Origin: an uncultured Candidatus Saccharibacteria bacterium
Lineage (GTDB): Bacteria > Patescibacteriota > Saccharimonadia > Saccharimonadales > JACDBH01
DNA: 64,000 nt
NCBI GenBank assembly: GCA_964641015.1
Contig: CAZXJN010000001.1
Location: 42,733 to 106,732, forward strand
Reading direction: 5' to 3'
Part shown: positions 2,844 to 32,681 of the stretch, in pieces
How the letters are laid out: every line of letters starts with the position of its first letter
Position numbering within the stretch: position 1 is the stretch's first letter
Notes under the pieces: model-generated
What the model saw: only the letters and a program-made list of their open reading frames with translations
Database searches by the model: none
What the model was told of the DNA's origin: nothing
Translations under genes and position numbers: made by a program

Positions 2844-5800
2844 TTAGGCAACTTCTGCTTCGTCGAGCAGCGCTTCAGCTTCAGCCGCCATCAGCTCGCG
2901 TGAGCCAGTACCCACTGGGATACGACGCCCTAAGATTACGTTTTCCTTGAGGCCGTACAGGTAGTCAATCTTGCCGCTTGTTGCCGCTGCAATAAGTACG
3001 CGGGTTGTATCCTGGAAGCTTGCGGCAGACAGGAATGAGTCTGTGCTGAGTGAAGCCTTTGTAATACCGAGCAGCAACTGATTGTACTTGATGAGCTCTT
3101 TGCCAGCCTTGGCAAGCTCCTCATTCTTCTCAATCACGGCCTGCTTGCTCACCACATCGCCGGTTACGAACTCGCTATCGCCAGCTTCCTCAATTTGAAC
3201 GCGGCCAAACATCTGGCGCACAATGATTTCTAGGTGCTTGTCTGCAATATTCTGACCCTGTGACGCAAAGATTTTTAGAATCTCGTTCATGATGTAGCGC
3301 TGTGTCGCTTCCACACCCTGCAGGCTCATAAGGTCATGCAGGTTGATGGAACCGTTGGTGAGGCGTTGGCCTGCAATCACATGCTCACCATCCTTTATCG
3401 TAAGCTGTTTGAAGTTTGGAATCTCATAGCGCACTACTGCTTGTTTAGCCGGGCTGATTGTCGCAGTCTTATTAGTAAAGTCGACTTTGCCTGCAACTGG
3501 TGCAATAAGTGGATTTGAAGCCTCTTCGCCTTCAGCAATTACATCACCAATGGCGATGTCTGAGCCGGTAGCGACTGTTGGCCTGCGGCCGTCGAGGTTG
3601 AGCTTGACTGCATCTGCTTGGTCAGAGGTAATCTGTACAATATACTTCTCTCCCTCTTCCCACACACTAGCGAGACCTGGTACATCGCTGAGATAAGCCT
3701 GGCCCTTTGGAGTGCGCACTTCAAAGATTTCTTCGACGCGTGGCAGACCCTGGGTAATATCATCAGCTGCGGCAGAGCCACCACTGTGGAAAGTACGAAG
3801 TGTCAGCTGGGTACCTGGCTCACCGATACTCTGCGCCGCGATAACACCAATCGGATGTGCATCTGCAACCAGTTCACCGGTGGCTGGATCAACACCATAG
3901 CATTTAACAGGGATGCCTCGAGCAGTTGCCACTGAGAGCACGCTCTTGATTTTAACCCCATCAATTGATTCGTCAGCTTCGATAGCCTCAGACGCTTCCT
4001 TATCAATCAACTCACCCTTTTTCACGATTTTACCGATATTTTCAGCGGCATAACGGCCAACCAAACGTGAAGCCAGTGATACGCCGATTTCATCGGCATC
4101 AGCGCGGTAAATAGCGAAGCCTGGATCCTCAACATCCTCTTCGATAGTGAAGACGTCTTGAGCAACATCCACGAGACGACGGGTGAGGTATCCTGAGTCA
4201 GCCGTCTTGAGCGCGGTGTCAATCATACCTTTGCGGGCGCCACGAGTCGCAGTAAAGTACTCGAGCGCAGTGAGCCCCTGCTTGTAGCCGGACTTGATTG
4301 GCAGCTCAATTGCTTTACCGGTCGCATCAGTAGTCACACCAAGCATGCCGACTGATTTCATCACCTGGCCTACGTTACCACGGGCACCAGAAGTAGCAGC
4401 AATTGACATAGAGCTGTCTTCTTCAACGAACTGGGCGGTTAGCTTGTCCATTACTTCGCTTTCTGCCTCGAACCAAGTATCGATAGTCAGGCGATAGCGC
4501 TCTTCGTCAGTAATGAAACCTTGGTCGTACTGGTCGCTGATCTCAGCAACTCGTTCGCCTGCTGCATCCATAACTTCTTGCATGCCGCTGATTTCTGAGA
4601 AATCATCCATACCCATCGATAGGCCCGACATCGTAGCGTATTCAAAGCCAAGATCTTTGAGTGCATCAGCAATCTGCGCTGTTTTATCTTGTCCATACAT
4701 CTGATAGACCAGCGCCATCACGCTCGATAGCTTCTTCTTGGTCATAGCTTCTTCCTGGAATGGGAAGTCGCTTGGGAAAATCTCATTAAAGAGCACGCGG
4801 CCCAATGTAGTCGTACGTGTTTCACCGCGGAAGTCCAGTCGTATGTAATCCTGAAGCTTGATGTTGCCGCCATCGAATGCCATCAGCGCTTCTGCAACAT
4901 CTGCAAAGGCGCGGGGCTCTTTGTTTGAGCTAGGGCGGTCATATGTCAGATAGTAACAGCCAAGCACGATATCTTGCTCGATATGCAGGATAGGTGAACC
5001 GTCTGCTGGCTTGAGCAGGTTTTTGTTGGCAGCCATAATCTCACGCGCCTCTGCTTGCGCAGCGTCAGAAAGCGGCAAGTGCACTGCCATCTGGTCACCG
5101 TCAAAGTCAGCATTAAAACCCTTACACACCAGTGGGTGCAACTGAATTGCTTTTCCTTCGACAAGCACTGGCTGGAAGGCCTGAATCGACAAACGGTGCA
5201 GACTTGGCGCACGGTTGAGCAGGACATATTTGCCCTTAATCACTTCATCAAGCGCGTCCCAAACCTCGGTTTCACCAGTTTCAATCATGCGCGTAGCAGA
5301 ACGGATATTATGCGCCAGGTCTTCTGCAATCAGCCGGCCAATGACAAATGGCTTGAAAAGTTCAAGCGCCATCATTTTTGGCAGGCCACACTGATCGATG
5401 GTAAGTTCTGGACCGGCAACAATTACTGAGCGGCCGGAGTAGTCAACGCGCTTACCAAGCAAGTTCTGGCGGAAACGGCCCTGCTTGCCTTTGAGCAAAT
5501 CGCTCAGGCTCTTTAGTCGCCGGCGCTGACCGGTGGCCGCAACTGCGCGACCGCTGCGAGCGTTATTGTTGTCAATAAGCGCATCGACCGCTTCTTGCAG
5601 CATGCGCTGCTCGTTGCGGCGAATAACTTCTGGCGCATTTAGATCGATCAGCTTTTTCAGACGATTATTACGGTTGATAACGCGACGATACAAATCGTTC
5701 ATATCACTGGTCGCAAATCGACCGCCTGTCAGCTGCACCATAGGACGAAGATCTGGTGGAATTACCGGCAGCACTGACAGGCACATGCTCGATGGCTTAA

Positions 5801-6662
5801 TGCCAGCATTCTGCATATTCTCTAGTAGGCGCAGGCGCTTTTGCAGCTTCTTGCGTCGCTGGCCTTTTGCCTGTTCACTTTCTACGGTAAGTTCTTGAAT
5901 CAGCTCAGTGAGATCGATTTCAGAAAGCAGTTCTTGCAGTGCAGCACCGCCCATGCCAACTGTTACAAGCTCTTGCAGCTCGCTTGGCAGCTCGCGGTAC
6001 TCAGCTTCAGACAGCAAGCCAAGCTTGACCAGGCTCGTAAGCTGCTCCTTGAGCAGTTCAAATTCCCGTGTTACTTCCTCGAGCTCTTTGGTCTGCATTT
6101 CAGCCAGCGCCTTCACATTGGCGTCTTCTTTTGCAGCTTCGGCCTCATAACGAGCCTTGATAGCTTCTTGGGCGGCTGCAAATTCAGCCTCCTTATTAGC
6201 AAGCATTGCATCACGCTTTTCAGTATCAACAGACTTGATGATGTAGCTGGCAAAATAGGTCACGCGTTCAAGATTCTTAACGGTCATGCCGAGCAGTAAA
6301 CCAACTGCTGATGGCGTACCGCGCAGGAACCAGATATGCGCAACCGGTGCAGCCAGTTGGATGTGGCCCATTCGCTCGCGTCGTACAATGCTGCGCGTAA
6401 CAAGCTCGCCGTTCTTGTCTACGGCCGCTTCGCGTGAACGAAGTCCCTTGTACTTAGCATCGTGCGGGTTGATATCCTTTACTGGACCAAAAATCCGCTC
6501 GCAGAATAGTCCGTCCCGCTCTGGCTTCTGGGTACGGTAGTTAATGGTTTCGGGCTTTGTGACTTCGCCGTAGCTCCAATCCAGTATGTCGTCTGCGCTT
6601 GCAATGGCAAGGCGAACTGCATCAAAGTCGGCAATATCAGCGCCGTAGTTGAATTTCCGCAT
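2844..6662 (-). CDS. rpoC: DNA-directed RNA polymerase subunit beta'
   Basis: 1272 aa. Contains the NADFDGDQMAVH catalytic motif and conserved blocks throughout. Immediately downstream of rpoB. Confidence 0.97.
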   Translation of the reverse strand: MRKFNYGADIADFDAVRLAIASADDILDWSYGEVTKPETINYRTQKPERDGLFCERIFGPVKDINPHDAKYKGLRSREAAVDKNGELVTRSIVRRERMGHIQLAAPVAHIWFLRGTPSAVGLLLGMTVKNLERVTYFASYIIKSVDTEKRDAMLANKEAEFAAAQEAIKARYEAEAAKEDANVKALAEMQTKELEEVTREFELLKEQLTSLVKLGLLSEAEYRELPSELQELVTVGMGGAALQELLSEIDLTELIQELTVESEQAKGQRRKKLQKRLRLLENMQNAGIKPSSMCLSVLPVIPPDLRPMVQLTGGRFATSDMNDLYRRVINRNNRLKKLIDLNAPEVIRRNEQRMLQEAVDALIDNNNARSGRAVAATGQRRRLKSLSDLLKGKQGRFRQNLLGKRVDYSGRSVIVAGPELTIDQCGLPKMMALELFKPFVIGRLIAEDLAHNIRSATRMIETGETEVWDALDEVIKGKYVLLNRAPSLHRLSIQAFQPVLVEGKAIQLHPLVCKGFNADFDGDQMAVHLPLSDAAQAEAREIMAANKNLLKPADGSPILHIEQDIVLGCYYLTYDRPSSNKEPRAFADVAEALMAFDGGNIKLQDYIRLDFRGETRTTTLGRVLFNEIFPSDFPFQEEAMTKKKLSSVMALVYQMYGQDKTAQIADALKDLGFEYATMSGLSMGMDDFSEISGMQEVMDAAGERVAEISDQYDQGFITDEERYRLTIDTWFEAESEVMDKLTAQFVEEDSSMSIAATSGARGNVGQVMKSVGMLGVTTDATGKAIELPIKSGYKQGLTALEYFTATRGARKGMIDTALKTADSGYLTRRLVDVAQDVFTIEEDVEDPGFAIYRADADEIGVSLASRLVGRYAAENIGKIVKKGELIDKEASEAIEADESIDGVKIKSVLSVATARGIPVKCYGVDPATGELVADAHPIGVIAAQSIGEPGTQLTLRTFHSGGSAAADDITQGLPRVEEIFEVRTPKGQAYLSDVPGLASVWEEGEKYIVQITSDQADAVKLNLDGRRPTVATGSDIAIGDVIAEGEEASNPLIAPVAGKVDFTNKTATISPAKQAVVRYEIPNFKQLTIKDGEHVIAGQRLTNGSINLHDLMSLQGVEATQRYIMNEILKIFASQGQNIADKHLEIIVRQMFGRVQIEEAGDSEFVTGDVVSKQAVIEKNEELAKAGKELIKYNQLLLGITKASLSTDSFLSAASFQDTTRVLIAAATSGKIDYLYGLKENVILGRRIPVGTGSRELMAAEAEALLDEAEVA

Positions 6663-6663
6663 C

Positions 6664-9600
6664 TTATTGCTCCTCCCCTTCGCTCGGGTCTGTTTCTGGT
6701 GTGTCGTCCTCGCCAGCTACGCTAACGGTCATGAATTCACTTTCGATGGCTTCTTCACTGACATCCAGATTTGATAGTTCATCATCCGGCACTTCAATAT
6801 CAGATACATGCTCTGCTTCGTCCTTGATATTGCTTGCCAGAATTTCTTCAGCATCAATGGTCTTGTTTTCTTTGAGATCAAGCAGGTCGACCTTCAATCC
6901 AAGCCCCTGGAGCTCTTTAACAAGCACGTTAAAGCTTTCTGGAATCTTCGGCCCGACAATTTCAGTACCCTTGATGATTGATTCGTACGCCTTGGAGCGT
7001 CCGTAAACATCATCAGACTTGATGGTCAGCATCTCCTGCAAGGTGTGTGACGCGCCGTATGCTTCGAGCGCCCAGACTTCCATTTCACCGAATCGCTGAC
7101 CGCCATTCTGCGCCTTACCGCCGAGCGGCTGCTGGGTTACCATGGTGTACGGTCCGGTTGATCGGGCATGAATCTTGTCAGTCACCATATGATTGAGTTT
7201 GATCATATACATGTAGCCTACGGTGGTAGTTTCCTTGAATGCCTCACCGGTACGGCCGTCGTACAACTGCTGCTTGCCGTTTCGCGGCAATCCTGCTTCT
7301 TCCAGCAGGTCCTGTATTTTGTCAATCGACACCCCGTCAAACGACGGGCTGGCAACTTTCATGCCAAGCGCATGGGCTGCCATGCCTAGGTGTGTTTCAA
7401 ACAGCTGGCCAATATTCATACGAGAAGGTACGCCCAGCGGGTTGAGTACGATATCTACGGGAGTCCCGTCCTCGGTAAATGGCATGTCCTCGACCGGCAG
7501 AATGCGAGCAATCACGCCCTTGTTACCGTGACGACCACCCAGCTTGTCACCTACTTGAATCTTGCGCATCTGCGCAACAAACACCTGAATCTGCTTGATG
7601 ACGCCCGCCTTGAGCTCGTGCCCGTTTTCGCGGGAGAATACTTTGACGCCCACGATTTTACCGTGTTTGCCGTTGCTCATCCGCTGTGAAGTGTCACGAA
7701 CTTCTTTGGCCTTTTCGCCAAAAATTGCACGAAGCAGACGCTCTTCGCTTGACAGCTCCTGCTCGCCCTTAGGAGTAATCTTACCAACCAGAATGTCACC
7801 AGGGTGCACTTCAGCACCAATCCGGACAATCCCTTCGTCATCGAGGTGCCGCAGTGCATCTTCTGAGACATTTGGAATGTCACGAGTAACAATCTCTGGA
7901 CCCAGCTTAGTCTCACGAACCTCAGTCATATAGTCGATGATGTTGATGCTAGTGAGCGTATCGTCCTGTACAAGCCGACGCGAGATAATGATGGCATCTT
8001 CAAAGTTGTAGCCGCCCCATGGCATAAATGCTGTCAGCAAGTCTTTGCCGAGCGCCAATTCGCCATCCTGTACAGACATACCCTCGATCAGGACATCGCC
8101 TTTCTTGACCTTGTCGCCTGAGGAGACAACGACCTTTTGGTTGATGCTGGTACCTTCGTTAGAGCGTACAAAATGCTGAGGAGTGTACGTAACCACCCCT
8201 TCTTTGTACTTCACCTTGACCTCTGCACCCGAACTAGCAACAACCTCGCCATCGGCCTCAGCTACCACCAACTGGCCTGTATTTCGGGCAGCAGTGCTTT
8301 CCATGCCCGTTCCTACGATAGGGCTCTGTGGCGTAATCAGCGGCACAGCCTGGCGCTGCTGGTTGCTGCCCATGAGCGACCTATAGACAAAGTTCTTTTC
8401 AATAAAGGGAATGAGCCCGGCGCTGGTCCCAATAACCTGACGGCGTTCTGCATCGATATAGGCAACCTCATTAGCATCAACCTCTGAGGAGTGCAGGAAG
8501 CGGCGTGCTGACACACGCTCTTCTTTAAAGTACCCATCCTCGTCAATGGCATTGTCAGAGCTTGCGATAATCGTTCGGCCTTCTTCGTAAGCATCGAGGT
8601 AGACGATCTCATCAGTCACCCGTGCTTTGACCGGCCATGTTATTTGATCTTTGACCGCGGCAAGCTTCTTCGCGTCAGCGGCGGTGACCTTAGCACCAGC
8701 TTTGACAATCACTTTACCGTCTTTGTCTTCGAGGTTTACTGCTGCAATATGGCCGACAATATCCTTAGCAGTTGCGGCATTCACTACTTTTCGATACGGA
8801 GCCTCAATGAATCCATAATCATTAATACGGGCATAGCTTGCAAGATTGAGCACGAGACCAATGTTGGCGCCCTCGGGCGTCTCAACCGGACAAATACGGC
8901 TGTAGTGCGTAGCATGCGCATCACGCACCTCAAAGCCTGCACGCTCACGGCTCAGGCCGCCCGGACCCATCGAACTGAGACGGCGCTTGTGCGCAAGCTC
9001 GCTCAAGGGGTTGATCTGGTCCATGAATTGGCTCAGCTGCGAGCTTGCGAAGAACTCACGTACCGCAGCCACGACCGGGCGAGCGTTAATAAGCTGGCCA
9101 GGGGTAACGGTTTCGATTTCACTCATTGACATACGATCCTTGGCGTTGCGCTCCATGCGCAGCAGGCCAATACGGAACTGTCGCTGTACCAGCTCGCCAA
9201 CCAGCTTGACACGGCGATTCGCCAAGCTGTCAATGTCATCGGCTGGCTCCTGGGTAATATTGAGGCGAATAATCTCGGAAATGATCGCAATGAGATCCTC
9301 AAGGCGCATTACCCGGTTTTCGGCGGTGTTCGGCACATCGAGATCAAGCCGCTTGTTGATCTTGTAGCGGCCGACGCGACTGAAGTCAAAACGCTTGTAG
9401 TTGTAGAACATGTTTTCAATCAAGCTGCGGGCGTTATCAACGGTTGCCAGATCACCCGGGCGCAGACGGCGATACACTTCGATAAGTGCTTCGTTAGAGC
9501 CTCTGCTTGGATCCTTTTCAAGCGTAGCTGCGATATAGCTGGTTTTTGCCTGATCAACATGCTTGAAGGCGTCTTTTATCTGATTTTCGGTCATGCCAAG

Positions 9601-10483: not shown

Positions 10484-11077
10484 CTAGAGGGATTCGATTA
10501 CTTGGTCGACGAGGCCGTATTCTTTAGCCTCTTTGGCATCCATCCAGTAGTCGCGCTCCATGTCCTCGTGCACGGCTTTGACAGACTTGCCGGTATTCTT
10601 CGCGATGATTCCTTCCAGCAGCTTCTTGAGTCTTAGCGCTTCACGGAGATCGATTTCCTGGTCGGTTACCTTGCCGCGAGTGCCTGAGCTTGGCTGATGA
10701 ATCATTACCGTTGCATGCGGCAGCAGGTATCTTTTACCTTTTTCACCTGAGCTTAGCAGGAATGCCGCAGCAGACGCCTGCACCCCAATCCCATAGGTGT
10801 GCACGGGAGATTTTACAAACTTCATCGTGTCGTAGATTGCGAATGCATCATATACGCTGCCTCCCGGGCTATTGATATAAAAATGAATCGGTTTGTCCTG
10901 GGACTGGTTGTCCAAAAAGAGCATCTGAGCCACTACCAGATTGGCGGTGTGCGGATTTACATCTTCACCTAGAAAAATAATTCGATCTTTGAGCAGACGA
11001 GAATAAATATCATAGGCGCGCTCAATACGGCCTTCTTGCTCAATCACTGTTGGTATAAGTATATTGCTTGGTTTCAT
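10484..11077 (-). CDS. clpP: ATP-dependent Clp protease proteolytic subunit
   Basis: [37 protein letters not shown]...[18 protein letters not shown]...MIHQPSSG is the ClpP catalytic core. Start moved from the ORF-track extension (11143) to ATG 11077, which has GGGAG upstream. The extension would run through the CIRCE operator. Confidence 0.9.
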
Positions 11078-11124
11078 AAACGTAGTACCTGCTCCCTTTA
11101 GAGTCATATCTCTAGTGTAACATA

Positions 11125-11161
11125 GACAGTTAGCACTCTTCAAGCTCGAGTGCTAACTGTC
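11125..11161. promoter_or_regulatory. CIRCE operator (HrcA-type) upstream of clpP
   Basis: gacagTTAGCACTCttcaagctcGAGTGCTAActgtc. The core matches the CIRCE consensus TTAGCACTC-N9-GAGTGCTAA exactly and lies ~50 nt upstream of the clpP start. Confidence 0.6.
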
Positions 11162-25830: not shown

Positions 25831-27174
25831 CTACTTACTCAGAAAGGTATTGAGTGCAGATTTTATATCTGCTACCTCGTGTACGAACGCAGAGTTTTTG
25901 ACGCCGCTATTCTTTGGAGTAATCGCTGCTTTAAAGCCAAGCTTTTTAGCTTCAGCCACCCGCTTGTCAGCAAACGGCACCCGGCGGACCTCTCCGCTTA
26001 GCCCGACCTCCCCAAACACTACTGCATCATGTTTGAGCTGCATCCCTTTGGCGGCTGATGCAATAGCCATGCAGACCGCTAGGTCAGCCGCTGGTTCGGT
26101 GATTTTTAACCCGCCTACAATGTTGAGATAAATGTCCTTGTCGGCTAGCTGGAGCTTGGTGCGTCGTTCAAGCATTGCAATCAGCAGATTCATCCTAGTG
26201 AGATCAATACCGCTGGCAGTGCGCTTGGGATAACCATAAGACGTCGTCTGTACAAGAGCCTGCACCTCAACCAGCAATGGTCGTGCACCTTCTATAGTGG
26301 CTAGAACCACCGAACCATCGCTCACCTGCCGCTCTTCAAGCAGCGCCGCCGATGGGTTATCTACCGATACGAGACCTTCGTCTTTCATTTCAAAAATGGC
26401 AGATTCGTGGGTGCTCCCATAGCGATTCTTGACGCTGCGCAGCATTTTGAAACCACCGTAACGATCACCTTCAAGCTGCAGTACAACATCCACTACGTGC
26501 TCAAGCACTTTGGGACCGGCAATCGACCCCTCTTTTGTCACATGGCCGACCAGCAGCAGCGCAGTATGCGACGCCTTAGCGGCCTGCATGAGCATATGCG
26601 TGCTATTGGTGATCTGCGAGACCGAGCCAGTTGCAGAAGCGACTGCGCCGACACGAATGGTCTGAATTGAATCCACTACCACCAGATCAAACTCTCCTGG
26701 TGATATGGTGGCTGCAATATCATCGGTTGACGTGCTGGACGACAGAAGAAGATTCTTATGATTTGCTCCCAGCCGCTTGGCGCGCAAACCTACTTGATTC
26801 ACCGATTCTTCGCCGCTGACATACAAAACCTTGTGGCGTTTTGCAGCCTCATAGGCAAGCTGGAGCATGAGGGTGCTTTTTCCTATGCCCGGTTGGCCGG
26901 CAATCAGCGTAACGCTGCCTGGCACAAACCCGCCGCCAAGCACCATATCAGTATCAGGGGACCCGGTGGTAATCCGTGGCGCCTCCTGACGCTTAGTAAT
27001 ATCTGATACCTCTTGCACAGGAAGCTTTGTACCGCCTGGAGCCGCTAGTGCAGCCACGTCCAGCTGCTCAACAATAGTGTTCCATTCACCGCACGCGCTG
27101 CACTTGCCCATCCAAGAGCTATATGATTGACCGCAGTTTTGGCAGACATATGCCACACTTCCCTTTTTTGCCAT
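25831..27174 (-). CDS. radA: DNA repair protein RadA (Sms)
   Basis: N-terminal C4 zinc finger (CQNCGQ…CSACGEW), RecA-like Walker A (GQPGIGKST), KNRFG motif and Lon-like C-domain. Confidence 0.93.
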   Translation of the reverse strand: MAKKGSVAYVCQNCGQSYSSWMGKCSACGEWNTIVEQLDVAALAAPGGTKLPVQEVSDITKRQEAPRITTGSPDTDMVLGGGFVPGSVTLIAGQPGIGKSTLMLQLAYEAAKRHKVLYVSGEESVNQVGLRAKRLGANHKNLLLSSSTSTDDIAATISPGEFDLVVVDSIQTIRVGAVASATGSVSQITNSTHMLMQAAKASHTALLLVGHVTKEGSIAGPKVLEHVVDVVLQLEGDRYGGFKMLRSVKNRYGSTHESAIFEMKDEGLVSVDNPSAALLEERQVSDGSVVLATIEGARPLLVEVQALVQTTSYGYPKRTASGIDLTRMNLLIAMLERRTKLQLADKDIYLNIVGGLKITEPAADLAVCMAIASAAKGMQLKHDAVVFGEVGLSGEVRRVPFADKRVAEAKKLGFKAAITPKNSGVKNSAFVHEVADIKSALNTFLSK

Positions 27175-27320: not shown

Positions 27321-28292
27321 CTAGCGCTGGGTGGGCACAACCTCTCGGCTGTCTATTGCCTCAACAAGCTCAGCCTCCTCAGAGGCAATCTCGTTTCGCT
27401 GCTGGACGATTCCGTTGTACTTCACAATATCCACGCTGACACTGTCTATAAGCGCGTTAAATTCACCGACGCGATTGTTGTACACCGGCACAAGTTCATT
27501 GTACTGTTCCGTACGCCCGCTTGAACGATAGCTATTCATCTGATTGCGCATATTCTTTAGCTCGTCATTTTGAGCGCGCAGTTTCTCGGTAGCAGCGTCA
27601 ATCTGTTGCTTCAACCTGGATAACTCTTCGTCATACTGGCGAATTTTATTCCGACGGTCAGTAAAGGCCTGCTCGTATTTTTCGGCATAGCGGACAATCT
27701 CTAGCCGATTAGAAAAATACCGTCCGTAGTACTCCTCGAGTTCACGGGGCAAGTTCCGCACCTCCGAACCAAAAATTGAATGCATTTCATTTTCTACAAT
27801 AGACGGATCCTGCTTGCGGTACAGCTCGATTGTTTCAATGATTCGCGGGTCTTTCATGTTCTCGTAGGTCACCTGGAGAAGCGCGTTAATCCGACGCCGC
27901 TCGCTTGCACTCAGCCGCTCGTACGCCGCATGCAAAAACTCATGAGCTGCAGTAACCTGCTTTATACCCTCTAGCCGTTCATCCTGAACGTCAAGCAAAA
28001 AGATCCCGTTCTGCCCGGGCAAATAGCAGCCAAGGACGATAGAATGCTCGTTCTCGCGGCAATGCGTGTTAAATGTTTCCTTGTCAGCCACTATCGGGTG
28101 GTTTACATAAAACAACCGCCGTGACGAATCCACCATAGTAGTATGTTCAGTAAGCTGCACTATTTCGGAGCTCGGAGTATAGCCGCGAAGCTTTACCCAG
28201 TCCTGAATGTCTTGGGCAAAAAGCATTGCACCACCTACGAGCGTTACCATGAGCCCGAGTGATAGCCAACCTATTCTTTTACTTCGTCGCAC
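27321..28292 (-). CDS. Hypothetical membrane-anchored protein with HExxH motif and coiled-coil C-terminus
   Basis: N-terminal TM (IGWLSLGLMVTLVGGAMLFA). AAHEFLHAAYE is an HExxH motif. A long heptad-like stretch spans residues ~210-300. Confidence 0.5.
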   Translation of the reverse strand: MRRSKRIGWLSLGLMVTLVGGAMLFAQDIQDWVKLRGYTPSSEIVQLTEHTTMVDSSRRLFYVNHPIVADKETFNTHCRENEHSIVLGCYLPGQNGIFLLDVQDERLEGIKQVTAAHEFLHAAYERLSASERRRINALLQVTYENMKDPRIIETIELYRKQDPSIVENEMHSIFGSEVRNLPRELEEYYGRYFSNRLEIVRYAEKYEQAFTDRRNKIRQYDEELSRLKQQIDAATEKLRAQNDELKNMRNQMNSYRSSGRTEQYNELVPVYNNRVGEFNALIDSVSVDIVKYNGIVQQRNEIASEEAELVEAIDSREVVPTQR

Positions 28293-28368: not shown

Positions 28369-30867
28369 CTACTTGGTCTTGGCAGGCTTTTCAGATTTTA
28401 GACTGAACGCCAAGCCTTTTTTACCAGCACCTACGCTCACGACATCACCTTTTTGGTACTTCTCGTCTAGGAGTCCTTCTGCAATCGCATCCTCTATCTC
28501 GTCTTGAATCAGCCGCCGCATAGGTCGTACGCCGTTCTTGGCATCATAGCCCTTTTTGAGCATCCACTGTTTAGCAGCTGGGGATACATTGAGTCCGATA
28601 CCTTTTTTGACCAGGCGTGAACGCAGTTCATCGAGCTGCAAGTCCATAATCTTGAGCGCGTCTTTTCGTGTCAGCGCACGGAACACCACGGTTTTATCAA
28701 TACGGTTCAGGAGCTCCGGCCGCATCAGCTTCTTCAGCTCATCAAGCACCTTGTGCTTGTTCTCATCATGAAGCTCATCAAGGTCATCAATGTCTTTCCT
28801 GCCAACCGCTGAAAAACCAAAGTTTGCTTCCTTTTGAAGCTTATCGGCCCCTATGTTGCTGGTCATAATGACAATGGTGTTTGTAAAATCAATTGCTCTT
28901 CCTTTGGCATCGCTGATTCGACCGTCCTCAAGCAGCTGCAGCAGCATATTGAATACGTCAGGGTGCGCCTTCTCAATTTCATCAAACAGCACCACGCTGT
29001 ACGGCTGCCGACGAATCTTATCTGTCAGCTGACCACCGTCATCGTATCCGACGTAGCCAGCCGGGGCGCCAACCAGCCGTGATACGTTGTGGTGCTCACC
29101 GAATTCGCTCATGTCTATCTTGACTAGTGCGGATTCAGAACCAAAGAATTCTCTTGCCAGCACCCGCGCGAGCTCTGTCTTGCCGACGCCGGTCGGGCCA
29201 AGGAAAATGAATGAACCAATTGGCCGGCTCGTCTGACCTATACCAATACGATTCCTGCGCACTGCGCGTGCTAATGCAGACACTGCCTCGTCTTGCCCGA
29301 TGATATGCTTGCCTAGTGACGATTCGAGATTGCGCAAATATTTTGCTTCGGACCGAATCACCTTGCTTACAGGCACGCCTGTCATGCGAGCCACCACATC
29401 AGCAACATCCTCGCTGCTAAGCTTCAAGCGCTTGCTGTCTTTTGTCTTCTCTAGCAGCTTTTCAATTTTGGCACGAATTTGTGAGGCTTTTTGCTTGTAC
29501 TCAGCCGCCTTCTGGTATTCCTCTGCGTCCACGGCGTCATCAATGCGTACGTTGAGGAGTTTTAACTCCTTTTGCAACTTGCGCAGCTCCGGCGGCGTCT
29601 TGCCTTTATCTACACGTAAATGCGCTGCTGCTTCATCCAGCAGGTCAATTGCTTTGTCGGGCATGTAACGGTCATTGATGTAGCGCTTTGCCAAATTTAC
29701 GGTATCCTCCAGTACGTCGTCGCCAATTGCCACACCGTGAAATGTTTCATAATGCTTGCGTAATCCTTTGAGAATAGCAAGCGTCTCAGCTGCTGTCGTC
29801 TCTGGGACCTGGACCGGCTGGAAACGGCGCTCGAGCGCTGCATCCTTTTCGACATATTTTGTATATTCGCTGGTAGTTGTCGCGCCAATCATTTGAATTT
29901 TACCGCGTGCCAGTGCCGGCTTTAATATATTCCCTGCATCCATGGAACCCTCAGCCGCACCCGCTCCTACAATAAGGTGAAGCTCATCGATAAACACTAC
30001 GGTCTTTTTATCGTCCTCGAGTTCGGACATTACTTTTTTCAGGCGCTCTTCAAACTCACCGCGATACTTTGTTCCGGCAATCATTCCAGCAAGATCCAGC
30101 ATCACAATACGCTTATCGAGCAAGCTGTCAGGCACGTCCTCGCTCACAATCCGCTGCGCCAGACCTTCGACAATGGCTGTCTTACCCACGCCAGGCTCAC
30201 CGATAAGCACCGGGTTGTTCTTGGTGCGGCGGTTTAGGATGGTAATTACGCGACGGATTTGCGCCTCACGCCCTACTACCGGATCAAGCTTGCCGCTCCG
30301 CGCCTGCGCGGTGATATCAGACCCGTACTGGTCTAGTGTTGACTTGCCACGGGTACGCTTGCCGCGGCGACGAGTCGCATTATCAGTATCGCTGGCGTGT
30401 TCGTAGTGCTGACGATTAAGGAACTGCTCCAGCTCGGCTACCAGCTGGTCAGTGTTTACGCTCATGTCGCGAAGCAAGGTGGTAGCTCGTGCGTTTTTCT
30501 GACTAAGAATACTGTAGAGGATATGTTCTGTACCGCAATACTCCTGATGGAACTCCTGAGCAAGCTCATACGCCATCCGAAGGGTTAGTTTCGCGGTCTC
30601 ACTAAGCGCTTTGGTGCCCATATTAATTACAATACTGTTAGGTGTAAGATTAAGCGCAAGACGTGCGCGCTCTAAGGTAACACCAGAGCCTTCAAGCACC
30701 TTGGCGCCCATTGAGCTGTCCTGAGCCAGCACTCCTAGCAGCAGGTGCTCCGTGCCGATATATTGGCTATTAAAGCTTCGGGCAATCGCATCGGCATGTT
30801 TGAGGCTCTGCAGCGCATTATCAGTGAGGTGATTCAAAAATTCTTGAAAGTCTGGTGAATTTTGCAT
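28369..30867 (-). CDS. clpC: ATP-dependent Clp protease ATP-binding subunit ClpC (class III AAA+)
   Basis: Two Clp_N repeats and two AAA+ modules (GEPGVGKT…, GPTGVGKT…). Start moved from the TTG-initiated ORF-track start (30888) to ATG 30867. Confidence 0.9.
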
Positions 30868-30887
30868 AGTACCTACATCATACCACA

Positions 30888-30918
30888 AGTTAGCACTCGC
30901 ATGTCAAGAGTGCTAACT
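30888..30918. promoter_or_regulatory. CIRCE operator (HrcA-type) upstream of clpC
   Basis: agTTAGCACTCgcatgtcaaGAGTGCTAActgtc. Perfect match to TTAGCACTC-N9-GAGTGCTAA, 22 nt upstream of the clpC ATG. Confidence 0.6.
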
Positions 30919-31373
30919 GTCCAGAAGCGCGTACCAGCAAGAAAAAACAGGTGTCAAAAGCCCGAACATCCGAACTATAGTTATAAACCCTGGATTACCA
31001 GAGGCAACAGCTTTTATTGTAATTTTTACATTGGTTGCTGCAAAAACCTGTACAGGCTTATCGGCGCCAGCCATTATGAACCGGCTGGAATATTCTTGCC
31101 CTGCGGCTGCTCCCTCGTAGATGAGAAGAGCTATATGCCAGAGCACTGCCACCAATAGCCACCGCTATGACGGATGAAGGGTTGAACTTCTGCACGGTTT
31201 CATCTGCATGGCAATCAGATTCGTAAAAAACAGTCGAAGCACAGTCTATGCTTTCAGCCTGAAACCTGCTAATGCTCTCTGCTGCATCCAGTCGTGCGGC
31301 AAACCCTATTGCAGCAGCGGCGGCGGCGAGCCCGAAAATAACTCTTTCCGGATGGCCGCGCTCTCTCAACTCG

Positions 31374-32531
31374 CTACTCCCCGTGCTCTTCGATAGCTTC
31401 GAGCAGGCTGCTCTCAAGCTGATCTTTACGTTTGAGCTTCTGCACGGGTTTAACCGCCTCTACGGTCGTACCACCTTCAGCGGACTCAGCCGGCTTGTCT
31501 GCCACAATATCTATATCGTACCCTGTCAGCTTGCTTGCCAGACGGACGTTTTGTCCGCTCTTGCCAATCGCAATGCTCAGCTGATCTTCGTCGACAGCCA
31601 CACGAGCCTTTTTGGCCGCTTCATCGATTTCAACAGAATTTACCTTGGTAGGACTGAGCGCATTGTTGATATAGGTCTTGGCATCTTCGTCCCAGACGAC
31701 TATGTCAATCTTTTCCTGCTCGCCTACTTCGCTCATGACTGCGTTGACGCGTGTGCCGTGACCGCCGACAAACGTGCCGACAGGATCAACGCCCTGCACG
31801 GTGCTGGCTACTGCAATCTTGCTGCGCACGCCTGGTTCGCGAGCGATGCCCTGTATACTGACCGCACCGCTTTCCATTTCTGGCACCTCTGCACGAAACA
31901 GCCACTCGATAAATTCCGGGCAGCCGCGTGATACGACAAGCTGCGGGCCGCGGAATCCGCGTTCAATATCCTTGAGATACACCTTGAGGCGTTGGCCAGG
32001 ATAGTAGCGCTCACCTTGGATTTGCTCACTTCGCGGCATAATCGCCTGTGCCTTACCCAGCTCCATTCGGGTAATATTCCCCTCGACCCGAGACACAATA
32101 CCGTTCACCACTGTGCCGATTTTGTCTTCGAACTCTGCCATAACGATTTCGCGCTCGGCTTCACGCAAGCGCTGCAAAATAACCTGCTTTGCAGTTTGAG
32201 CGGCCACCCGGCCAAATGACTCAACTTTTTGATGAATCTCAACCACATCATCAAGGGCGGCGTTCTTTTTTATGGCCTGTGCTTCGCTAAGACTAATCTC
32301 AGTGTGCTCGTCTTCAACTTTTTCTACCACCACCTTTGAGATATACGCGTCAACATCACCGCTGTTTAGGTCCATGGTCACACGTACTTCCTGCTCGCGA
32401 TCACCATAATCACGACGATAAGCAGCGGCAAGCGCCTGCTCTACTACATCTTTTACGATTTCCTCGCTCAGATTCTTTTCCTCGGCGATTGCCTGGATAG
32501 CCGTTGCGAGTTGTTTAAAATCAAGTTCCAT
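31374..32531 (-). CDS. nusA: Transcription termination/antitermination factor NusA
   Basis: N-terminal domain, S1 and two KH domains (…GKSGQNVRLASKLTGYDIDI…). Start set at ATG 32531, which has an AGGAG RBS. The ORF-track start 32579 is an upstream extension. Confidence 0.92.
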   Translation of the reverse strand: MELDFKQLATAIQAIAEEKNLSEEIVKDVVEQALAAAYRRDYGDREQEVRVTMDLNSGDVDAYISKVVVEKVEDEHTEISLSEAQAIKKNAALDDVVEIHQKVESFGRVAAQTAKQVILQRLREAEREIVMAEFEDKIGTVVNGIVSRVEGNITRMELGKAQAIMPRSEQIQGERYYPGQRLKVYLKDIERGFRGPQLVVSRGCPEFIEWLFRAEVPEMESGAVSIQGIAREPGVRSKIAVASTVQGVDPVGTFVGGHGTRVNAVMSEVGEQEKIDIVVWDEDAKTYINNALSPTKVNSVEIDEAAKKARVAVDEDQLSIAIGKSGQNVRLASKLTGYDIDIVADKPAESAEGGTTVEAVKPVQKLKRKDQLESSLLEAIEEHGE

Positions 32532-32681
32532 TATATTTTCTACTCCTGAATTTATTGTTTTCAAATTTCCTTTTTTCATAAGTTACTTTAGGTCAGTACA
32601 ACCACAGTGGTATGAAAAAACCCGACCAATCTGGCCGGGCGAACTGGTGATAGTATACGGGAATCTGCTAAAAAAGTAAAC

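Follow-up and report, generated by a model that had tools for sequence, protein, structure and literature searches.

A CIRCE operator around the clpC promoter of Candidatus Saccharibacteria and a probable extension of the HrcA regulon to Clp protease genes

In a Candidatus Saccharibacteria (TM7) genome, the clpC gene is preceded by a perfect CIRCE palindrome that is very probably a real and conserved operator, and the conservation of this element among relatives very probably extends the HrcA/CIRCE regulon to clpC and clpP in the group. On comparative sequence evidence, we assign a probability of about 0.8 to the reading in which HrcA controls the clpC promoter by binding the palindrome at 30890-30916 as its operator. 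The predicted promoter is built into the operator itself, and the resulting clpC mRNA would probably begin almost directly at its start codon.

The two operators and their conservation

The window, that is, the whole 64-kb stretch of DNA that was analysed, carries two CIRCE operators, which are listed in Table 1 together with the genes and predicted promoter elements around them. Its remaining genes are of a housekeeping nature and include rpoB/C, uvrB, gatA/B, dnaE, recG, genes of a penicillin-binding protein (PBP) and a pilus ATPase, and genes of pentose-phosphate enzymes. The relatives used for comparison were collected by a ClpC protein scan in which one genome per species was kept, giving 80 loci of 8.5 kb each; these closest ClpC loci come nearly all from metagenome-assembled genomes of Candidatus Saccharibacteria/Saccharimonadales (TM7).

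Table 1. Coordinates of operators, predicted promoter elements and genes at the clpC and clpP loci of the window
Feature	Coordinates	Strand	Basis or remark
CIRCE operator of clpC	30890..30916	-	perfect TTAGCACTC-N9-GAGTGCTAA, 27-bp core, 0 mismatches
Predicted -35 hexamer of clpC, TTGACA	30902..30907	-	sequence read; in CIRCE spacer from position 1
Predicted extended -10 box of clpC, TGgTATGAT	30877..30885	-	TG 30885-30884, TATGAT 30882-30877; 19 nt past -35
Predicted clpC transcription start	30869..30871	-	6-8 nt after -10 box; inferred from promoter geometry
clpC-like Hsp100 ATPase gene, 832 aa	28369..30867	-	start ATG 30867-30865; Pfam; orthologues 75-89% identical from residue 1
Conserved 323-aa ORF between clpC and radA, function unassigned	27321..28292	-	same-position homologue in 78/80
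radA, downstream of clpC	25831..27174	-	Pfam; in 76/80 loci
nusA, upstream neighbour of clpC	31374..32579	-	Pfam; upstream of clpC in 75/80 genomes
CIRCE operator of clpP	11130..11156	-	perfect core; CIRCE (0-1 mismatch) upstream of clpP in 5/5 relatives
Predicted clpP promoter	11114..11143	-	-35 TTGAAG 11143-11138, 18-nt spacing, TGt-TACACT 11122-11114
clpP, 197 aa from ATG 11077	10484..11077	-	Pfam CLP_protease; relatives 198 aa

The 832-aa product of the clpC-like gene contains the Pfam domains Clp_N, AAA, AAA_lid_9, AAA_2 and ClpB_D2-small, and its translation has a short middle region and an FGF tripeptide in D2. None of the NCBIfam equivalog models scored over its cut-off for this protein, the best being ClpB with 895 bits against a cut-off of 1232 bits. 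The order nusA - clpC - 323-aa ORF - radA is kept in 75-78 of the 80 relatives, and from this gene order the 323-aa ORF and radA are possibly co-transcribed with clpC. For the 323-aa ORF, no Pfam or NCBIfam family scored over its curated cut-off, and only weak DUF6674 and SMC-like matches were obtained. A homologue with 26% identity adjoins a CIRCE-preceded clpP in one further locus (L163), and the ORF may be a Clp-associated factor. Around clpP, both the window and the retrieved relatives have the order hisS - tig - (small ORF) - clpP - rpoB.

On the gene strand, the clpC operator consists of TTAGCACTC (30916-30908), the spacer TTGACATGC (30907-30899) and GAGTGCTAA (30898-30890); on the + strand, positions 30888-30921 read AGTTAGCACTCGCATGTCAAGAGTGCTAACTGTC, which can be split as AGTTAGCACTC-GCATGTCAA-GAGTGCTAACTGTC. 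An earlier inspection of the letters alone (the sequence-only reading) had proposed a perfect CIRCE core 22 nt upstream of clpC, and both parts of that description hold, as the core is free of mismatches and exactly 22 nt (30868-30889) separate it from ATG 30867. The clpP operator, 19,760 nt away, is made up of TTAGCACTC (11156-11148), the spacer GAGCTTGAA (11147-11139) and GAGTGCTAA (11138-11130), with the palindrome lengthened to 14-bp arms (GACAG...CTGTC). The two copies share their flanks, AG at one end and CTGTC at the opposite end. The sequence-only reading had remarked on this flank extension, shared with the clpP copy ~20 kb off; the extension is indeed present, but as a conserved operator part it was rejected, since the relatives lack it and mostly have A-rich flanks. 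The GACAG/CTGTC flanks are therefore treated as a peculiarity of the window's genome.

A motif scan, run within the 64-kb window, bore out the pairing of operators and Clp genes: at up to 3 mismatches only the clpC and clpP sites were found, both perfect. The chance expectation from dinucleotide shuffles was 0.05 per 64 kb, and none of 100 shuffles reached two sites. The comparative check across related genomes, which had been suggested as a test, gave the same picture. After the clpC start codons had been refined, each of the 80 related species genomes proved to carry a CIRCE no more than 300 nt upstream of clpC, mostly with 0-1 arm mismatches. The ~680 kb of the relatives' clpC loci contain 74 sites with at most 2 mismatches, one per locus and all at clpC, where about 0.014 would be expected by chance (our own calculation from base-pair odds). 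For clpP, homologues were chosen by protein similarity and their contigs then fetched, which avoids ascertainment bias; in all five loci retrieved in this way (ClpP 78-91% identical), clpP is preceded by a CIRCE with no more than one mismatch. One clpP locus of the five (L208) shares its contig with one of the clpC loci (L004), so that the two-operator arrangement of the window recurs in another species. Function rather than coincidence, as first argued from the two identical copies, is thus upheld both by the count in the window and by conservation at all clpC and clpP loci compared.

The pattern of substitutions is informative as well. In the 81 clpC loci (80 relatives and the window), the arms vary at position 1 (T to C) and position 3 (A to G), often in both arms, with C/C at position 1 in six loci and G/G at position 3 in eight; examples of such symmetric variants are CTGGCACTC...GAGTGCCAG and TTGGCACTC...GAGTGCCAA. 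The inner six positions, GCACTC, are near-invariant, with a single change in the 81 loci. A symmetric dimer reading the site would be expected to leave such symmetric arm changes.

When the gap between nusA and clpC is compared with relatives, CIRCE and the ~30 nt after it form the sole similar stretch. This gap (30917-31373, 457 nt) is long for a compact genome; the corresponding gaps in relatives range from ~90 nt to 1.6 kb. The window's gap contains neither a conserved ORF nor an Rfam match, and its similarity to relatives is confined to CIRCE and the promoter; the small ORFs 30913-31155 and 31058-31417 were rejected as genes because they have no homologue in relatives. Over the whole 64-kb window, Rfam returned one tRNA and otherwise nothing, the clpC upstream region included.

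Promoter, start codon and leader of clpC

Read on the gene strand, the clpC region is GACAG TTAGCACTC TTGACATGC GAGTGCTAA CTTGTGG TATGAT GTAGGTACT ATG. The spacer between the two half-sites thus opens with a predicted -35 hexamer, and this placement recurs in the group: TTG occupies spacer positions 1-3 in ~75 of the 80 relatives, the best -35 match lies at spacer position 1 in 66 of the 81 loci, and 64 of them have TTGACN. The TG-extended -10 box follows 7 nt past the downstream arm. Its distance of 19 nt from the -35 box is long for a sigma-70 promoter; over the 81 loci, a TAnnnT hexamer stands 16-19 nt past the -35 box in 79 and carries the TG extension in 47. A promoter scanner restricted to spacings of 16-18 nt made no call at the CIRCE-embedded clpC promoter, and a weak site that it reported at 31044-31016 was discarded, as it is not conserved in relatives. 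At clpP the register is shifted to TTAGCACTC GAGC-TTGAAG-AGTGCTAA, followed after 18 nt by TGt-TACACT, so that the predicted -35 box straddles the spacer and the downstream arm; the relatives L207, L208, L210 and L211 have the same register in the form NNNC-TTGACG.

As judged from these sequences, CIRCE encloses the -35 box and takes up the stretch between it and the -10 box, and a bound repressor would occlude the promoter. For this reason the transcription start is expected downstream of CIRCE. The sequence-only reading had taken a start mapping downstream of the element as grounds for refusing it an operator role, which was mistaken: an operator around the promoter with the start downstream is the classical geometry of repression by promoter occlusion.

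A promoter-embedded CIRCE was also observed before a small zinc-ribbon gene (Zn_ribbon_8, MPTYEYQC...) on two G+C-rich, probably actinobacterial contigs (L113 and L140), which indicates that the embedded layout is not restricted to Patescibacteria. A scan of viral contigs for CIRCE with a TTGAC spacer gave 0 matches.

The start codon of clpC was also reconsidered. The in-frame ATG at 30867, which had been preferred to the TTG at 30888, is well placed: homologues align from residue 1 and begin with MMP(N/Q)SPDF at the equivalent position. The same reading had put TTG 30888 within the operator; this codon falls inside the interval drawn there for the element but 2 nt outside the 27-bp core. TTG 30888 lies upstream of the predicted -10 box and is unconserved in relatives. 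Alignment and promoter position together support ATG 30867 as the start of clpC and rule out TTG 30888.

In the window, the -10 box ends just 9 nt before ATG 30867, because of which the clpC mRNA is probably nearly leaderless, with a 5' leader of ~1-4 nt deduced from promoter geometry. Distances this short between -10 box and start were found in only 4 of the 81 loci (6, 6, 9 and 11 nt), the median being 56 nt, and the longer leaders of relatives carry Shine-Dalgarno sequences such as AAGGTGG. The leader has apparently been deleted in the window's lineage. In metagenomic members of the regulon, the start of hrcA or clpP often lies 9-21 nt past CIRCE, as does that of hrcA in a Saccharimonadales genome (L201), and these short distances make near-leaderless expression plausible for the group.

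An in-frame ATG of clpP at 11107 (11105-11107, minus strand) lies 30 nt upstream of 11077 and 6 nt past the TACACT -10 box. From that codon, clpP could be leaderless, with a 10-residue N-terminal extension; the length of ClpP in relatives, 198 aa, favours ATG 11077 over 11107. The 8-mer AGGTACTA occurs on the minus strand in both start regions, at 30867-30874 for clpC (context GT-AGGTACTA-TG) and at 11083-11090 for clpP (context GC-AGGTACTA-CGTTTATG), and the clpP gene of one relative (L210) has GTACTATG in the equivalent place. This 8-mer may favour initiation on short leaders, or its recurrence may be a coincidence.

In most relatives, the predicted clpC leader opens with a stem-loop (approximately locus positions 2940-3000), as seen in L003, L018, L019, L025, L026, L039, L042, L046, L054, L059, L063, L071 and L077; the window is without it. 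The stem is usually (T)AGCGA...TCGCT(A) with an A-rich loop of 10-14 nt containing TAAA or TAAG, and compensatory stems occur in some species (GTGACGC/GCGTCAC, GATGC/GCATC, GGTGAT/ATCAC, TGTGA/TCACA). The structure could stabilise the 5' end or act as a regulatory RNA. Rfam identified no family for the window's region.

HrcA, the wider regulon and alternative readings

The proposed repressor gene was looked for in the window itself, and no hrcA was found there, either with Pfam and NCBIfam on the ~43 ORFs or with tblastn using four Saccharibacteria HrcA proteins. A metagenome scan with the exact pattern TTAGCACTC-TTGAC-N4-GAGTGCTAA gave 120 loci, in which the first downstream ORF was classified: it was HrcA-like in 38, DnaK in 25, ClpB/ClpC in ten, ClpP in eight, GroES in five, Hsp20 in three, GroEL and DnaJ in one each and the small zinc-ribbon protein in two, the remainder being unrelated singletons. 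The HrcA-like proteins of 220-245 aa pass the Pfam gathering scores of HrcA (PF01628) and HrcA_DNA-bdg (PF03444). A database search with one short HrcA returned thousands of homologues, some of them named Candidatus Saccharibacteria/Saccharimonadales by NCBI, and the JGI name for such homologues is 'heat-inducible transcriptional repressor'. Saccharibacteria HrcA is encoded in hrcA-grpE-dnaK-(x)-dnaJ operons with the same promoter-embedded CIRCE in front; a CIRCE with a TTGAC spacer precedes hrcA in L201, an NCBI Saccharimonadales metagenome-assembled genome, and in L203. The hrcA contigs CAYZNG01 and DATKGW01 belong to none of the 80 clpC-locus assemblies. The hrcA genes were located at 6001-6702 (L201), 6001-6708 (L203) and 1501-2211 (L213).

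Between the short HrcA and Thermotoga maritima HrcA (PDB 1stz), the winged helix gives an alignment with E = 1e-21 and is nearly identical in the segment SSATIR...GYI.QPHTSAGRIPTDKG.RFY; such conservation fits recognition of a canonical CIRCE. In length the proteins differ: HrcA of Saccharibacteria and other lineages of the candidate phyla radiation (CPR) has ~233-241 aa, against 338 aa in T. maritima. Only about the last 110-145 of the 215 positions of PF01628 are matched, and only the winged helix aligns to 1stz; the C-terminal region appears to lack ~100 residues. The missing part may correspond to the inserted dimerising domain of 1stz. An AlphaFold2 model of the short HrcA, built from a shallow alignment, had a mean pLDDT of 41, too poor for the fold to be read. 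Because the protein is ~100 aa shorter, its dimerisation and regulation may differ from those of characterised HrcA.

At the promoters of grpE-dnaK and dnaK, tandem CIRCEs were observed (L201, 6707-6778; also L095, L096, L098, L115 and other dnaK loci), the first placed round the -35 box and the second, more degenerate, directly past the -10 box. The clpC, clpP and hrcA genes have a single CIRCE each, and the difference suggests a tighter repression of dnaK.

These observations bear on who binds the clpC palindrome. Some other regulator might recognise it, or HrcA might do so jointly with a second factor, the clp genes then forming a regulon separate from the chaperones. The absence of hrcA from the window and the truncation of the phylum's HrcA relative to the characterised protein would fit such a regulator, and in Myxococcus HrcA binds CIRCE efficiently only with the help of an accessory response regulator (PMC9040617). 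We nevertheless regard this as unlikely, since the same sequence in the same promoter register stands before hrcA and grpE-dnaK in Saccharibacteria, the winged helix of HrcA is highly conserved with that of 1stz, and no alternative candidate regulator was seen. Sites for CtsR, the regulator of clp genes in Firmicutes, were also sought: its heptad repeat (A/G)GTCAAANAN(A/G)GTCAAA was not found at the clpC or clpP promoter, and the 11 sites in the window with 2-3 mismatches all lie elsewhere, the nearest (31222-31238, 3 mismatches) being on the opposite strand ~300 nt upstream of CIRCE. There is also no ctsR-mcsA-mcsB cluster upstream of clpC at the window locus, where nusA stands, as it does in 75 of the 80 relatives.

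The inverted repeat could instead act as an RNA or DNA hairpin, either a terminator or attenuator of read-through from nusA or an mRNA stability element. A perfect palindrome, with arms of 9 bp at clpC and 14 bp at clpP, would suit this role, as would the often symmetric arm variants of relatives such as the first pair given above. Several results make it very improbable: a terminator scan of 30700-31500 was empty, and the palindrome is followed not by a T-run but by CTTGTGGTATGAT; the arm sequence itself, beyond complementarity, is almost invariant in 80 species; with a conserved -35 box in its loop and a -10 box behind it, the element precedes the predicted transcript; and no Rfam family matches. 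That the palindrome is a chance or relic repeat without present function in the window's genome is effectively refuted by two perfect-armed sites, both before Clp genes, where 0.05 were expected, and by their conservation in 80/80 clpC and 5/5 clpP loci.

Control by HrcA is thus the preferred reading, and it can be pictured as follows. A sigma-70-type -35 box, TTGACA, would lie in the 9-bp spacer between the half-sites, with the downstream half-site occupying the -35/-10 spacer and the TG-extended -10 box next to it. An HrcA dimer bound to both arms would cover the -35 region and exclude RNA polymerase. Proteotoxic stress would inactivate HrcA, possibly through titration of GroEL onto unfolded proteins by analogy with Bacillus subtilis, and the freed promoter would become heat-inducible. 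On derepression, transcription would start ~1-4 nt before ATG 30867 and yield an almost leaderless clpC mRNA, which may reach into the 323-aa ORF and radA. The clpP gene, 20 kb off, would be controlled likewise from its own CIRCE-embedded promoter.

Since the same CIRCE-embedded promoters are found at both sets of genes, a single repressor seems to serve both the chaperone genes (hrcA-grpE-dnaK-dnaJ, groES, hsp20 and clpB) and those of the Clp protease in the phylum. We lean, though only modestly, towards a broader proposal: the truncated HrcA of ~235 aa, with its winged helix kept, may by itself govern the entire proteostasis network (DnaK/GrpE/DnaJ, GroES/EL, Hsp20, ClpB, ClpC and ClpP) as master repressor, in Saccharibacteria and, as it appears, in numerous other Patescibacteria, acting through promoter-fused operators, many of whose mRNAs would be leaderless or nearly so.

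Significance and comparison with known systems

To our knowledge, gene regulation in Saccharibacteria and the wider CPR is almost unexplored. Full-text searches found no literature on HrcA/CIRCE in Saccharibacteria, Patescibacteria or the CPR, and HrcA/CIRCE control of clpC and clpP appears to be undescribed for the phylum. A transcriptome paper on TM7x lists clpB and clpP among regulated stress genes and names no regulator. To a specialist the mechanism suggested by these sequences would be unsurprising, and the comparative evidence for it is solid. What it offers is a testable regulon, complete with operator and promoter layout, in a phylum of which some members can by now be cultivated and genetically manipulated. 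It also suggests that reduced genomes fold control of the Clp protease into the chaperone regulon without a separate CtsR-like system, as may be compared with Lon in Mycoplasma. In terms of annotation, ATG 30867 replaces TTG 30888 as the start of clpC. The consensus TTAGCACTC-TTGACN-N3-GAGTGCTAA followed by a -10 box could serve as a ready-made stress-inducible promoter for Saccharibacteria genetics and as a landmark for annotating leaderless gene starts. If the single-master-repressor proposal is true, this would be among the first defined transcriptional regulons of the CPR.

In B. subtilis, CIRCE is situated between the -10 box and the start codon, whereas the CIRCE of Saccharibacteria surrounds the -35 box. 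In other respects the system resembles the known HrcA/CIRCE system (1997 work, as cited in PMC10602874 and PMC7737663). The 9-N9-9 consensus, given as TTAGCACTC-N9-GAGTGCTAA in PMC3842655, is the same, a repressor operator stands before protein-quality-control genes, and hrcA heads an autoregulated hrcA-grpE-dnaK-dnaJ operon, in Saccharibacteria as well. The differences are that the targets in Saccharibacteria include clpC and clpP and that HrcA is ~100 aa shorter. The analogy of GroEL titration refers to the GroEL dependence of B. subtilis HrcA (Mogk et al. 1997, as cited in PMC7737663).

In Gram-positive bacteria, CtsR is described as the main regulator of Clp ATPase genes and clpP (PMC3472708). 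The CtsR (class III) regulon of Firmicutes shares with that of Saccharibacteria the targets clpC and clpP, an operator that overlaps promoters, and a clpC operon with radA in it, as is possibly so in Saccharibacteria. It differs in that the CtsR operator is a direct repeat and the Saccharibacteria operator an inverted one, no CtsR heptad repeat lies at the clpC or clpP promoter of the window, and nusA replaces ctsR-mcsA-mcsB upstream.

The closest likeness in promoter geometry is offered by Myxococcus xanthus groEL2, where CIRCE overlaps the -35 region (Zhuo et al. 2018, as cited in PMC9040617). There, CIRCE lies on the -35 region and HrcA competes directly with RNA polymerase, as would be the case at clpC; the promoter there is a sigma-32-type chaperonin promoter, while that of Saccharibacteria is sigma-70-like, has TTGACA in the spacer and is found regulon- and phylum-wide. 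A Clp ATPase gene has also been proposed to belong to an HrcA regulon in Lactobacillus gasseri, namely clpL (Suokko et al. 2008, from the title as listed in PMC3231925), although it is another Clp paralogue and the host is a Firmicute.

A further parallel is the HrcA regulon of Mycoplasma pneumoniae, which comprises dnaK, dnaJ, groESL, clpB, lon, pepA and pip (PMC7737663). Both organisms have small genomes in which HrcA/CIRCE covers, in Saccharibacteria by prediction, proteases and chaperones, apparently as a single proteostasis regulator. The phyla are unrelated, and the proteases are Lon, PepA and Pip in Mycoplasma and ClpC and ClpP in Saccharibacteria; experimental support exists for the Mycoplasma regulon only, the Saccharibacteria regulon being predicted from sequence.
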